Shown here piece after piece: positions 3,242-6,857 of a DNA stretch of 64,000 nucleotides. Made by a program: the position numbers and the translations under genes. The notes under the pieces were generated by a model. The model was given only the letters and a program-made list of their open reading frames with translations, ran no database searches and was not told the origin of the DNA. Numbering within the stretch: position 1 is the stretch's first letter; every line of letters begins with the position of its first letter. The stretch comes from Giardia intestinalis (lineage: Eukaryota): NCBI GenBank assembly GCA_000002435.2, contig CM018792.1. One strand, written 5' to 3'.

Positions 3242-5083
3242 ATGAGGACATCTCCGAAGGCCCTGGAAAAGGGGTCAAAGCAAAAAATGATCGTGCAAAT
3301 AGGACCTTACTATATAAATGCAAGGCCGCGGGCAAAGGGCGGGTACAGCTATGTGTACCAGGGCTGGCATGAGAGCGACGAACGGATCCAGTTAGCATTC
3401 AAGCTTCTCCTTCTTCACGATCGCCGTGGTTTCCTTAGCAGGTCGCAGACAAGAGACATCGACAACATGGTGTCCTTGGTGGATGCTATGAGCAGGAGAC
3501 CGGGTGCAACCAGCAATCACCCGGATCTATATGTAGATTTTCCGTTTCTTCCCCTTCTAGATATCATCGATGTCAGTTCATCTACCAAAAGCAATGTACA
3601 TCGCTTAAAGGAGTACGAGAGCGAAGCGAATGCAGAACTTTCCCTCCTGCTTGTCTTCCCCTTTTGTGAGTTAGATCTTAAGACCTACCTCAAGCACGGC
3701 TCTCTTTATTCTGCAAAAGAAGAGGATGTGCTGCGTGTTGCTTATCAGATTCTTCGGGCCGTTGGAATTATGCATTCTTTAGGATGGTCGCACAGGGATC
3801 TCAAACCAGAGAATATGCTTATCTCCAGGGATGGCCAGCTGCTTCTCTGTGATTTTGGCATGGCACGCTGTGAAGTGACCTTTCTGCGACGGTTTGGAGT
3901 CAGCTACAACTATGATTACAGAGGAAATAGTTACACAGACACTAAGATGCCGATTAGAGAATACGACGAACGGTGTGCCGTTGCATATGATCCACTCGAG
4001 GGCTTAGACCGCACACAGCAGCCGGGGATCGTCTCGCGTCGCCTCCTCCCACCAGCTGGTGCCACATCCATCTGTGGGACCATATGGTGGCGAGCACCGG
4101 AGCAATCCTTCAGGAAGAACGTCAACTGCTCAGGGTTCATTGGTGACTCGTGGAGCCTCGGGTGCATTTTGATACAGTTGTTATTCGATTACCCCGCCTT
4201 TCACTCCAAGGACAGGGACGAGAATACTGGCTCAGGGGAAGTCCTTGCTTACGTCAACCAGCTCCGGCCACTGGCAGAGAATGAAGACTTCCTGGAGGCT
4301 ATAGTTTCTTTCAACGGTGTGTCTCGATCATTCATAGATTCCTTTAGGGCTGTCACAACGAAGCTGAATAAGGCTCGCGCAGCAGACCTGCAACGGATTT
4401 TAGCCATGCCACGCGAGCAAGTAGAGGCAGTATTGGCAAATGCACGCGACAGTAATGCTGGACGTGAAGACAGCAATTTACAGGAACCGCCAGTTAAACA
4501 CAGCGACGACCCACTGAAACAGATACCTTCACACATTAAGCAACTGATTATACTCAACAGACACGCTATACTATCGCCATACAGGGACTGCGACGCGATC
4601 TACTCCACAAGCAGATACACCTTGAAACAAGCATGCTTTTTAATGCTGGTTCTCCGGTTTGCACCCTTGCCAAAGGTTGTGGAGATGATGGACAAACCCG
4701 CCATCTCCGTGCAAGAGCTCACCATACTCCTAGAGCTGTCGCCGACAGCTATATGCTTCTACAATATGTACTCAGACCTGGTGTCCAAATTAATGAACCC
4801 TAACCCCCTTCGCCGCCTGATGCCCACAGAGGCCTTGACACATCCTATCTTTGACAACGTTCAGAACTCCTTTTTCTTCAAGCTGAATACCAGCAACTCT
4901 ACGTTTACCAAGCCCGACGAAACCAACAGCGCGAACAACTTCCTTCAGAAGATTAGCGCCATTCTAAACAGAAAGGTGGACTTCAACAAGGATTACCTGC
5001 CGGTTTTATTGAATGAAATCTCACACAGAACCCTCGACGAACTAGTCTTCACTTATTGTCCAAATTCACTAGACGACGTCTAG
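3242..5083 (+). CDS. Ser/Thr protein kinase, predicted active.
   Basis: The catalytic loop HRDLKPENML (about 3791-3820), DFG (LCDFGMA) and an APE-like segment (WWRAPEQ) are all present. A long C-terminal extension follows the kinase domain. Confidence 0.8.
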   Translation: MRTSPKALEKGSKQKMIVQIGPYYINARPRAKGGYSYVYQGWHESDERIQLAFKLLLLHDRRGFLSRSQTRDIDNMVSLVDAMSRRPGATSNHPDLYVDFPFLPLLDIIDVSSSTKSNVHRLKEYESEANAELSLLLVFPFCELDLKTYLKHGSLYSAKEEDVLRVAYQILRAVGIMHSLGWSHRDLKPENMLISRDGQLLLCDFGMARCEVTFLRRFGVSYNYDYRGNSYTDTKMPIREYDERCAVAYDPLEGLDRTQQPGIVSRRLLPPAGATSICGTIWWRAPEQSFRKNVNCSGFIGDSWSLGCILIQLLFDYPAFHSKDRDENTGSGEVLAYVNQLRPLAENEDFLEAIVSFNGVSRSFIDSFRAVTTKLNKARAADLQRILAMPREQVEAVLANARDSNAGREDSNLQEPPVKHSDDPLKQIPSHIKQLIILNRHAILSPYRDCDAIYSTSRYTLKQACFLMLVLRFAPLPKVVEMMDKPAISVQELTILLELSPTAICFYNMYSDLVSKLMNPNPLRRLMPTEALTHPIFDNVQNSFFFKLNTSNSTFTKPDETNSANNFLQKISAILNRKVDFNKDYLPVLLNEISHRTLDELVFTYCPNSLDDV

Positions 5084-5091
5084 TCAAAAAA

Positions 5092-5613
5092 ATGAATTTG
5101 CTTCTAAAGGTGAATTATTTCAGTGATCACGTCATAAAAACATTAAAATCCAATTTCCATGTTAACTTTAAAAGAGCAAAGCTAACTGAAACGACCATGC
5201 GTCCAAGAAATCCAGATATTGCACAAATAACGTGCAGGGCGGTCATTAAGCTGGAGTTATGCCCTCACAAGGCTGCTCGCATATTTGGTTTGCATCCTCG
5301 AACTCTATACCACTGGATGTCCCAGTACCGAGGCGGTACACTCATGGAGTCCCGCTCGAAAACCCCGCGACCTCTTCAGGAGGACGTTTGCAAGCTCTTC
5401 ATTGAGATGAAGGCTCAGTCCTCGTCTGTCCATCTCAAGGAGCTGAAGGACGCCCTCGCAGAAAGGCTAGGGATAAACGTTTGCCTATCAACAGTTCACA
5501 ATTGGTTGGCTAAGTGGGAGAGCTCGAACGCCATGGCAGACGGAAGCAATCGTGCTAGCCACAGTCAACATAACACGCACAACCCCCACAGTAGTCACAA
5601 TGCTCATTGCTAG
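5092..5613 (+). CDS. Small protein with a Tc1/mariner (IS630)-type bipartite paired-like HTH DNA-binding domain and no transposase catalytic (DDE/D) domain.
   Basis: First HTH: KAARIFGLHPRTLYHWMSQY. A basic linker (SRSKTPRPLQED) follows. Second HTH: LKELKDALAERLGINVCLSTVHNWLAKW. The protein ends in a His-rich tail and the ORF terminates at 5613. The track start at 5056 is a TTG; the first ATG is at 5092. Confidence 0.45.
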   Translation: MNLLLKVNYFSDHVIKTLKSNFHVNFKRAKLTETTMRPRNPDIAQITCRAVIKLELCPHKAARIFGLHPRTLYHWMSQYRGGTLMESRSKTPRPLQEDVCKLFIEMKAQSSSVHLKELKDALAERLGINVCLSTVHNWLAKWESSNAMADGSNRASHSQHNTHNPHSSHNAHC

Positions 5614-5657
5614 ACGATTGACTGGCTGCACCTCAGCTCGTCTCGGTCGCAGTTTGG

Positions 5658-6857
5658 CTACTTTGTAGTAAATGATAAGTCGTTTGCGATACTGACAAGT
5701 TCTGCGGCGTCCTCCAAGGCCAGACTAAGTTTGTAAATATCTCTGAGACGGCCAAGGAGACTGGACCCAAGTACTCTGTTGAAACACTCGTTCATGTTGA
5801 TCAGGCCCTTTGCCTCTTTGTGATACAACTGAACCTTTTGCTGGAGCTCTGGACCAACTCCTCCCAGAAGGTCTTCTATGCTTGCACGATCGGTAAGGAA
5901 CGTATGACGCTCTTCTACGACCGCGGCAATTCGCTCGAGAAGATTCTTCACGGCTCCATGGACTTCCGATATCTCCTGGGTGCGTGTGTGCAGCTTGTGT
6001 ACCAAAAGCTCATTATCTGTTTTGAGAGACTCGTGTTTGAGTAGCAGATCATCTAATGTAGCGTTCAGGTCAGCAACCTGTTGCTCTAGGGCAGAGACCA
6101 CCACCCTATGTGCGTTTTGTTTTTCTATGAGACTGCCCGCAGATGCATCATACTCCGCAGACAACGCCTGTTCAAGACTCAGCGAAGACGCTTCCTCCTT
6201 GGTCAGACGCGTGTAGACACCGGAAACATAGTCCATGGAGGCGCTCAGACTACGGAGGTTATCGTAGCTGCGCATCACCGGAGCACCCTCACTCCGGTCT
6301 GTAGGCCCCGACTCGAACGCGCTGTCTGTCAGAAGACGGTCGTGGGCAGCCTCGATAAATGAGCCGTACACGCCGTAGGTCTTGTTCCTCTCCATAAGAA
6401 TAGAGAGCAGGGCCGTCGCCCCCGCGATGGTGTCTGTGAGCCCCGACATCTCCTGCATGACACATGAGATTCCTTCGTAGCGCTTTGCTGTCAGCCGGAG
6501 ATTCTTGTTCTGCTTGTCCTTGCTACGCGAGACATATATGTCTATCTCGGCTTTGCGCCGCATAAGCTCCTGTCGCCGAATTTCTAGGGCTTTCTCTCTG
6601 GCCGCAAGCTGAGCCGAACGAGCTTCGTACTCTGCCTGTGTCTGTTTCAGGATGGCGGTGATCTCCGCAAGATTCTGCTCCTGTTCCTCTAGCTCTGTAT
6701 TATACACTCCAGTGGGCTGAGAAATCTCGTGCTCTGCAAGCCTGTACTTGACCGCCTGAATATCTGTATGAGTCAAGAAGGTCTTCTGGGCGTGACCTGT
6801 AGCTGAGAGTGAAAGCTTTGGTAGTGGTGCATTGACTGTGTTGCCATGTTTTCGCAT
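5658..6857 (-). CDS. Coiled-coil protein, hypothetical.
   Basis: A 399 aa ORF starting at an ATG, with long heptad-like E/K/L/Q-rich stretches. No recognisable catalytic motif. Confidence 0.5.
   Translation of the reverse strand: MRKHGNTVNAPLPKLSLSATGHAQKTFLTHTDIQAVKYRLAEHEISQPTGVYNTELEEQEQNLAEITAILKQTQAEYEARSAQLAAREKALEIRRQELMRRKAEIDIYVSRSKDKQNKNLRLTAKRYEGISCVMQEMSGLTDTIAGATALLSILMERNKTYGVYGSFIEAAHDRLLTDSAFESGPTDRSEGAPVMRSYDNLRSLSASMDYVSGVYTRLTKEEASSLSLEQALSAEYDASAGSLIEKQNAHRVVVSALEQQVADLNATLDDLLLKHESLKTDNELLVHKLHTRTQEISEVHGAVKNLLERIAAVVEERHTFLTDRASIEDLLGGVGPELQQKVQLYHKEAKGLINMNECFNRVLGSSLLGRLRDIYKLSLALEDAAELVSIANDLSFTTK

Follow-up and report, generated by a model that had tools for sequence, protein, structure and literature searches.

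GL50803_29140 of Giardia intestinalis is probably a host gene domesticated from a transposase-type DNA-binding module

Gene Model and Genomic Context

We investigated GL50803_29140, a Giardia intestinalis gene that encodes a helix-turn-helix (HTH) protein and probably descends from the DNA-binding part of a transposase. It lies in a 64,000-nucleotide stretch of contig CM018792.1 (assembly GCA_000002435.2), referred to here as the window. As annotated in WB, and in the open reading frame (ORF) listing of the window, it is a plus-strand ORF of 173 aa at 5092–5613, and its product is identical to XP_001709550.1, KAE8303652.1 and UniProt A8B4B9, "hypothetical protein GL50803_0029140" of Giardia intestinalis WB. 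An initial annotation, made from the DNA letters, had described two HTH motifs and a His-rich tail in this ORF, and all of these were present at 5092–5613 (+). Its assumption of a Giardia source also proved right, the window being from Giardia intestinalis WB. It had also pointed out how little room is left before the next gene, a convergent 399-aa DUF4200 gene at 5658–6857 (−); the stop-to-stop spacing measured 44 nt (5614–5657). The opposite strand of 5092–5613 held no ORF of at least 50 aa. No GTATGT splice donor was found in or after the ORF, so there was no sign of splicing to a downstream exon.

The start of the coding sequence (CDS) was examined by alignment of six lineages of the G. 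intestinalis complex: assemblage A (the window), assemblage E (P15, L013), assemblage B (L007 together with the GS and BAH15c1 proteins) and the divergent lineages L009, L011 and L008. The ATG at 5092 is absent from assemblage B, indels between 5092 and 5197 disrupt the frame in assemblages B and E, and 19–20 nt of 5092–5196 are deleted in L009 and L011. All six lineages aligned keep the ATG at 5197, which opens the sequence MRPRNPD, and the deposited gene models of assemblages B and E both begin there. In the portion of a published RNA-seq table that was covered (PMC3610916, Table S1), the WB gene coordinates likewise amount to 417 nt. The extension has a GC content of 30–32% and a third-position GC content (GC3) of 0.37; GC3 is 0.576 in 5197–5613 and 0.57 in the two neighboring genes.

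Because the ATG at 5092 is not conserved, the region has indels and a low GC3, and the assemblage B and E models and the published coordinates start at 5197, the WB reference model is, on this comparative evidence, over-extended by 35 codons. The true CDS is 5197–5613 (+), with 138 codons plus stop in 417 nt and the MRPRNPD start in six lineages, and the annotated N-terminal extension at 5092–5196 (+) is non-coding, comprising 5′ flank and putative promoter. The ORF coordinates of the initial annotation therefore describe an ORF that exists, but the first 35 codons are not conserved coding sequence. With the WB model to be shortened by this length, the product is a basic protein of 15.7 kDa (pI 9.46), small and a tractable experimental target.

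Family Assignment and Sequence Relatives

Profile searches assigned the protein to transposase-type HTH families. In a Pfam scan, done with the numbering of the 173-aa model and with hits listed to E ≤ 10, three models scored above their gathering scores: HTH_23 (31.7 bits, gathering score 24.6), HTH_28 (27.3 bits, gathering score 25) and HTH_Tnp_1 (25.1 bits, gathering score 24.1). The transposase-type HTH proposed in the initial annotation was thus recovered at the profile level. HTH_32 fell slightly below its gathering score (29.4 bits against 33.7) with all 73 of its positions aligned, to residues 71–139, which takes in both HTH subdomains. HTH_33 also matched, and HTH_Tnp_IS630 was sub-threshold. 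No match at E ≤ 10 was obtained for PAX (PF00292), CENP-B_N, HTH_48, HTH_Tnp_Tc3_1/2 or HTH_Tnp_Tc5, and the scan contained no catalytic-domain family. The best NCBIfam model was the IS630-family transposase (NF033545; E 3.3e-9), matched over profile positions 14–116 of 299, with IS481 and IS3 ranking behind it.

Full-length comparison pointed to the same group. When the six Giardia orthologs were aligned to ten IS630 OrfA proteins with hhalign, the probability was 97.4% (E 1.1e-11) over 101 columns at 35% identity. This alignment covers residues 1–109, that is, both HTH subdomains and the linker between them, of a 138-aa protein set against relatives of 121 aa, and the GRP position of OrfA is kept as TPRP. 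An exhaustive phmmer search of 1.84 billion representative proteins returned 15 hits at E ≤ 1e-3, among which were one Giardia ortholog and two repeat artifacts; the interpretable rest were transposase-type HTH proteins. The two artifacts, P0003 and P0004, had the top scores after the Giardia ortholog (P0004 is an Ig_7 repeat protein) and were rejected as relatives. The same exhaustive search gave no Giardia paralog.

P0016, a 121-aa relative, is followed on its contig by a DDE_3 ORF 95 nt downstream and is therefore the OrfA of a split-ORF IS630 element. The 121-aa IS630 OrfA relatives were carried by mouse-gut metagenome-assembled genomes (MAGs; L020–L024), from an uncultured Mailhella sp. 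and an alphaproteobacterium, in several copies per MAG. In P0011, a 213-aa fragment, "IIWLDETNYNLY" comes after the HTH module, and P0006, P0008, P0010 and P0013 are multi-HTH proteins. A PDB search with the single protein sequence gave no match at E ≤ 10, and a PDB profile search gave weak matches to Mos1 (E 0.19) and 6pax (E 0.25).

From the HTH matches in Pfam and NCBIfam and the hhalign alignment to OrfA, we conclude by sequence comparison that GL50803_29140 is homologous to the DNA-binding module of the IS630/Tc1-mariner (ITm) superfamily. The demonstrated part is an IS630-like affinity, which on the same grounds is clearer than that to Tc1/mariner proper. The Tc1/mariner label of the initial annotation consequently stood only in part: the protein does have a transposase-type bipartite HTH, but the Pfam HTH models of Tc3, Tc5, mariner and CENP-B were unmatched, and the clearest full-length relatives are bacterial IS630 OrfA proteins.

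A separate observation concerns the hit P0005 (397 aa, on a 604-kb ENA contig), which contains at least five tandem units like the second HTH and the start of the tail (…LENELGVTCSEHTMRTWIANWKSRNEGDA… vs. …LAERLGINVCLSTVHNWLAKWESSNAMADG…).

Predicted Structure

An AlphaFold2 (AF2) model was computed from a 13-sequence alignment and had a mean predicted local distance difference test score (pLDDT) of 69.8, with values of 75–87 in the helical parts. Helices were predicted at residues 6–18, 23–30 and 34–43 (pLDDT 85–87) and then at 61–74, 80–91 and 97–112, a 3+3 arrangement. The first three-helix HTH subdomain (residues 6–43; 5212–5325, +) is delimited by the AF2 model and by the HTH_23, HTH_28 and HTH_Tnp_1 matches, and its putative recognition helix is PRTLYHWMSQ. 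The basic linker YRGGTLMESRSKTPRPL (residues 44–60; 5326–5376, +) follows from the alignment with IS630 OrfA and has a pLDDT of about 53. The second three-helix HTH subdomain (residues 61–112; 5377–5532, +) is delimited by AF2, by HTH_32, which spans both subdomains, and by HTH_33; its putative recognition helix is LSTVHNWLAKWE. The protein closes with a His-rich tail, predicted to be disordered (residues 113–138; 5533–5610, +; pLDDT < 50), made up of a period-3 HxxH repeat and a terminal Cys.

A GRPR-like or AT-hook motif between two HTH motifs is a feature of the ITm transposase family. In the Giardia protein, TPRP of the linker stands in register with the GRP of IS630 OrfA proteins (SKTPRP vs. 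ST-GRP-CKF); SKTPRP is basic and contains proline, and it is not a canonical GRPR.

Foldseek comparison of the model with the PDB returned bipartite DNA-binding domains (DBDs) as all of its top eight matches, each over about 112–129 columns. In order of rank, these were Pax6 (6pax_A; probability 1.0, E 6e-3, 121 columns), Pax5 (1k78), the SETMAR DBD (7s03), the CENP-B DBD (1hlv), Prd (1pdn), two chains of Mos1 (5hoo; ranks 6 and 7) and the bipartite DBD of Tc3 (1u78). The Pfam and NCBIfam matches, the hhalign alignment, the six-helix AF2 model and the Foldseek matches bear out the description in the initial annotation of a stand-alone, transposase-type bipartite HTH protein lacking a catalytic domain.

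The paired domains of Pax6, Pax5 and Prd among the top structural matches raise the alternative that the gene is a true Pax (paired-box) member, which would make it the third Pax gene of Giardia, with animal paired domains as its orthologs. Two Giardia lamblia proteins, Pax1 (ORF 32686) and Pax2 (ORF 16640), have been published as paired-like transcription factors with a PAI+RED-type bipartite HTH; both are nuclear proteins that bind to AT-rich initiators and act as activators of cwp1-3 and myb2 (PMC3280250). They share the organism and the bipartite HTH with GL50803_29140 and offer the best functional analogy. Orthology to paired domains is nevertheless very unlikely. The PAX profile was unmatched while transposase-type HTH models exceeded their cut-offs, and the profile match to 6pax was the weak one given above. 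The metazoan paired domains (6PAX, 1K78, 1PDN) do share two three-helix subdomains and a linker with the AF2 model over about 112–121 Foldseek columns, but at an identity of only 12–18%. Helix 1 is predicted to begin at residue 6, so the N-terminal beta-hairpin of paired domains is absent from the model. SETMAR, CENP-B, Mos1 and Tc3 also had Foldseek scores about equal to those of the Pax proteins, and the match to the PAI+RED fold does not discriminate, because that fold is common to transposase DNA-binding domains.

The published Giardia factors are also different genes: the ORF here is 29140, not 32686 or 16640. Pax2 has 302 aa, and its paired domain lies C-terminally, at residues 172–299, behind a Pro-rich N-terminal region, whereas the 138-aa protein consists of a DNA-binding domain from residue 6 and the His tail. 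Phmmer gave no similarity to Pax1 or Pax2, as we infer from the lack of any Giardia paralog among its hits, since both should be in the searched library. With the PAX profile unmatched and the beta-hairpin missing, GL50803_29140 is not a Pax-family member.

Conservation and Selection

GL50803_29140 is single and syntenic in the six G. intestinalis lineages, and the order kinase (+), HTH gene (+), DUF4200 gene (−) was kept on every sufficiently long contig sampled. Substitutions were counted by the Nei–Gojobori method over core codons 1–108 for 15 lineage pairs. Assemblage A differed from E by no nonsynonymous and 23 synonymous changes (dS 0.40), from B by none and 31 (dS 0.61) and from L008, the most divergent lineage, by three and 45 (dS 1.2, omega 0.01); the maximum over the 15 pairs was five nonsynonymous and 63 synonymous changes. 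Core omega was accordingly 0.00–0.01 at dS values of 0.4 to above 1. The residues invariant across the six lineages numbered 104 of the 108 in the core, including both recognition helices and the linker entirely; these are the helices on whose conservation in orthologs the initial annotation had made its reading depend.

Core dN between assemblage A and the other lineages was 0.000–0.012. For the pairs A–B and A–L009, dN was 0.044 and 0.051 in DUF4200, compared with 0.000 and 0.008 in the HTH core; in the kinase, dN for A–L009 was 0.106. At the protein level, both neighboring genes change faster than the core, on which purifying selection is extreme. The tail also evolves faster than the core (dN 0.15–0.28). 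Lineages vary in how many repeats it has, so that the whole protein is 126–141 aa long, with the period-3 HxxH and the terminal Cys always kept. The tail looks like a loosely constrained, codon-level microsatellite.

Transposon Features

A search for inverted and direct repeats revealed no transposon ends; specifically, there were no inverted repeats in 4600–6100, a range that includes the 5000–5700 in which the initial annotation had suggested looking for terminal inverted repeats. No second DNA or protein copy was found in the 64-kb window by blastn and tblastn, and tblastn gave no match to DDE_3 at E ≤ 1 in the window. The ORF ends at 5613, short of the convergent gene, and contains no DDE/D domain. 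Since it has no DDE domain, no terminal inverted repeats and no further copies in the window, GL50803_29140 is not an ITm transposase in the full sense.

Two alternatives involving a transposable element were weighed against these data. The initial annotation had left open whether the gene is a domesticated module or all that survives of a Tc1-like element. On the latter view, it would be a pseudogene or decaying piece of a Tc1-like DNA transposon and would do nothing for the host, which would fit an ORF that lacks a DDE domain, breaks off 44 nt short of the next gene and resembles only the N-terminal part of a transposase. We give this possibility almost no credence: it is refuted by a core omega of about 0.01 over dS values of 0.4 to above 1, by a frame that is intact at the same, single-copy syntenic position in six lineages, and by high transcription with mapped poly(A) sites (see below), and neither inverted repeats nor other copies were found in the window.

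In the second alternative, an IS630-like element is still mobile, the protein serves as its OrfA-type regulator, and the DDE ORF of the element is located at another place in the genome. This alternative draws on the closest full-length relatives, which are the 121-aa OrfA proteins of split-ORF IS630 elements. The Giardia gene departs from these in that no DDE_3 ORF follows it, as one does in L019, and no terminal inverted repeats surround it; it is instead a single-copy host gene under strong purifying selection, with an added His-repeat tail. Mobility is extremely improbable given that six lineages, diverged to dS values above 1, all carry the gene at one shared syntenic site only, that its GC3 equals that of neighboring host genes, that the window contains no DDE_3 similarity and no inverted repeats were found, and that phmmer detected no Giardia paralogs.

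Expression

Published transcriptomes indicated that the gene is expressed as a host mRNA. The covered portion of Table S1 of Franzén et al. 2013 (PMC3610916) holds its entry (GL50803_29140 / AS175_2211 / GLP15_4671 / GL50581_3226), with fragments per kilobase per million (FPKM) values of 1053 in WB, 494 in AS175, 796 in P15 and 875 in GS. The 3′ untranslated regions (UTRs) mapped there by poly(A) tags are 68, 68, 69 and 67 nt long, respectively. Ranked by WB FPKM within that portion of the table, the gene falls in part 5 of 40, i.e., in the first eighth. The check on expression suggested in the initial annotation thus came out in favor of a host mRNA, at FPKM 494–1053 and with mapped poly(A) sites in four isolates. 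The gene was also expressed in a trophozoite time-course (ranks 360–503; PMC4670223) and in metronidazole-resistance transcriptomes (PMC8866875). In two encystation RNA-seq papers, the covered parts of the supplementary data contain no entry for it, which speaks neither for nor against a regulation in encystation.

Domestication and Putative Function

We consider it likely that a transposase of the IS630/Tc1-mariner superfamily supplied the N-terminal DNA-binding module from which GL50803_29140 was domesticated as a host gene; the DDE domain and the transposon ends would have been lost or never have been present in Giardia. The domestication alternative of the initial annotation is supported by synteny, single copy, purifying selection and expression at the transcript level, the features by which domesticated transposase-derived genes are usually recognized, together with the lack of transposon ends. 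The SETMAR, CENP-B, Mos1 and Tc3 DBDs share the bipartite fold (Foldseek ranks 3–8, see above), and SETMAR and CENP-B also represent the same evolutionary route, in which a transposase DNA-binding domain is retained as a host gene. Those two proteins keep a catalytic remnant or fused domains, whereas only the DNA-binding domain survives in the Giardia gene.

The DNA-bound structures of Pax6, Prd, Tc3, Mos1 and CENP-B provide a model for bipartite site recognition. By analogy, the Giardia protein would bind a bipartite DNA site in the way known for paired domains and for the DNA-binding domains of Tc3, Mos1 and CENP-B. Two major-groove segments would be contacted by helix 3 (PRTLYHWMSQ) and by helix 6 (LSTVHNWLAKWE), and the SRSKTPRP linker would run along the minor groove. 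In trophozoites, the protein may in this way act on transcription or chromatin in a sequence-specific manner, and one could speculate that the HxxH tail binds a metal or a partner.

It is also conceivable that the HTH fold has been put to another use, in an abundant protein–protein adaptor, an RNA-binding protein or a non-specific chromatin-coating protein. We regard this as unlikely, since both recognition helices and the basic linker are invariant, the protein is basic (pI 9.5) and its close sequence relatives are all DNA-binding transposase modules.

Several points weigh against domestication as a sequence-specific DNA-binding factor. Transposase ancestry rests on similarity to HTH families that are also found in non-transposase regulators, and the confidence of the AF2 model is moderate (pLDDT 69.8 from 13 sequences). 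DNA binding, nuclear location and targets are arrived at by inference. The searches for copies and DDE domains covered the window and protein libraries, and a DDE remnant may lie elsewhere in the genome. Finally, the transcript level in the covered part of the expression table is unusually high for a gene-specific transcription factor, which leaves room for an abundant architectural, possibly CENP-B-like, or other role.

Few Giardia transcription factors have been characterized. GL50803_29140 is uncharacterized in every annotation, and a search of literature main texts found no paper mentioning it. Domesticated transposase-derived genes are well known, and the two published paired-like factors of Giardia lower the novelty of another bipartite HTH protein. 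With its high rank among trophozoite transcripts and a protein core that changes less than that of either neighbor, GL50803_29140 is probably a DNA-binding factor of importance that only the G. intestinalis complex possesses.

Age and Origin

The corresponding locus of G. muris (CM016925.1; L014, 5001–7900) contains a DUF4200 ortholog, GMRT_15373, with 59% identity, and a kinase ortholog with 36% identity over 560 aa (E 6e-104). The two G. muris genes are convergent with a gap of 5 nt, and the HTH gene is not between them. Tblastn with the HTH protein gave nothing at E ≤ 1 in the 11-kb G. muris locus or in two loci of more distant relatives. The kinase–DUF4200 pair of G. muris is itself inverted relative to the upstream WD40, ATP_bind_1 and 210-aa genes, and an ankyrin gene is interposed.

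Given the empty slot in G. muris, either the G. intestinalis lineage acquired the HTH gene by insertion at this place or G. muris lost it by deletion. The exhaustive phmmer protein search gave no ortholog outside the G. intestinalis complex, and the gene seems restricted to that complex. Because the gene is strongly conserved within G. intestinalis and has no ortholog outside the complex, a gain in the G. intestinalis lineage is favored over a loss in G. muris by the sequence comparisons. The OrfA relatives in gut bacteria are compatible with a horizontal origin, for which an identity of about 30–35% is no evidence.

To our knowledge, only non-long-terminal-repeat (non-LTR) retrotransposons are known from Giardia, namely GilM, GilT and GilD, which were reportedly described by Arkhipova and Morrison in 2001. 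The ancestry proposed here means that an IS630/Tc1-mariner-type element or a bacterial insertion sequence once gave coding material to the Giardia genome. A fuller scenario, which we put forward tentatively and which is doubtful as a whole, is that after the split from G. muris an IS630-like element, possibly acquired by horizontal gene transfer from gut bacteria, landed between the two convergent genes. The captured DNA-binding module would then have become an abundant, near-invariant chromatin or transcription regulator specific to the complex, perhaps autoregulating through the conserved promoter and 5′ CDS block described below. Under this scenario, Giardia would have yielded its first molecular trace of a DNA transposon, and the gene would be a lineage-specific regulator.

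Conserved 5′ Block and mRNA 3′ End

A block at 5128–5310, made up of about 70 nt 5′ of the ATG at 5197 and the first ~35 codons, had a nucleotide identity between assemblages A and B of 95–98%, compared with 75–88% in the surrounding coding sequence. Its upstream part at 5128–5196 (+), defined from the six-lineage alignment and with the same A–B identity, is a putative promoter, within which GCAAAGCTAACT at 5176–5187 is invariant in six lineages. Conservation at the DNA level continued into the CDS: among assemblages A, E and B, synonymous-variable codons made up 4 of 35 in codons 1–35 versus 40 of 73 in codons 36–108 (p 2e-5), and among all six lineages 18 of 35 versus 64 of 73 (p 8e-5). The simplest reading of this pattern is a promoter or other DNA-level element that reaches into the CDS.

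An Rfam scan of 4700–5900 gave no RNA family at E ≤ 1, and when the conserved 5′ block was folded as RNA, the two strands had z-scores of 0.04 and 0.23, with no structure signal. A C/D-box snoRNA in the upstream block was considered and rejected, the C-box-like GTGATCA not being conserved in assemblage B. A scan for bacterial promoters and terminators, which is not relevant to Giardia, found nothing.

At the other end of the transcript, a candidate polyadenylation signal, AGTAAAT, lies at 5667–5673 (+) inside the DUF4200 CDS; it fits AGTRAAY, which we take to be the Giardia polyadenylation signal. The poly(A) site would lie near 5681, about 8 nt past this motif. With a 3′ UTR of 68 nt, the HTH mRNA reaches into the convergent DUF4200 CDS (5658–6857, −) and covers its final ~24 nt.

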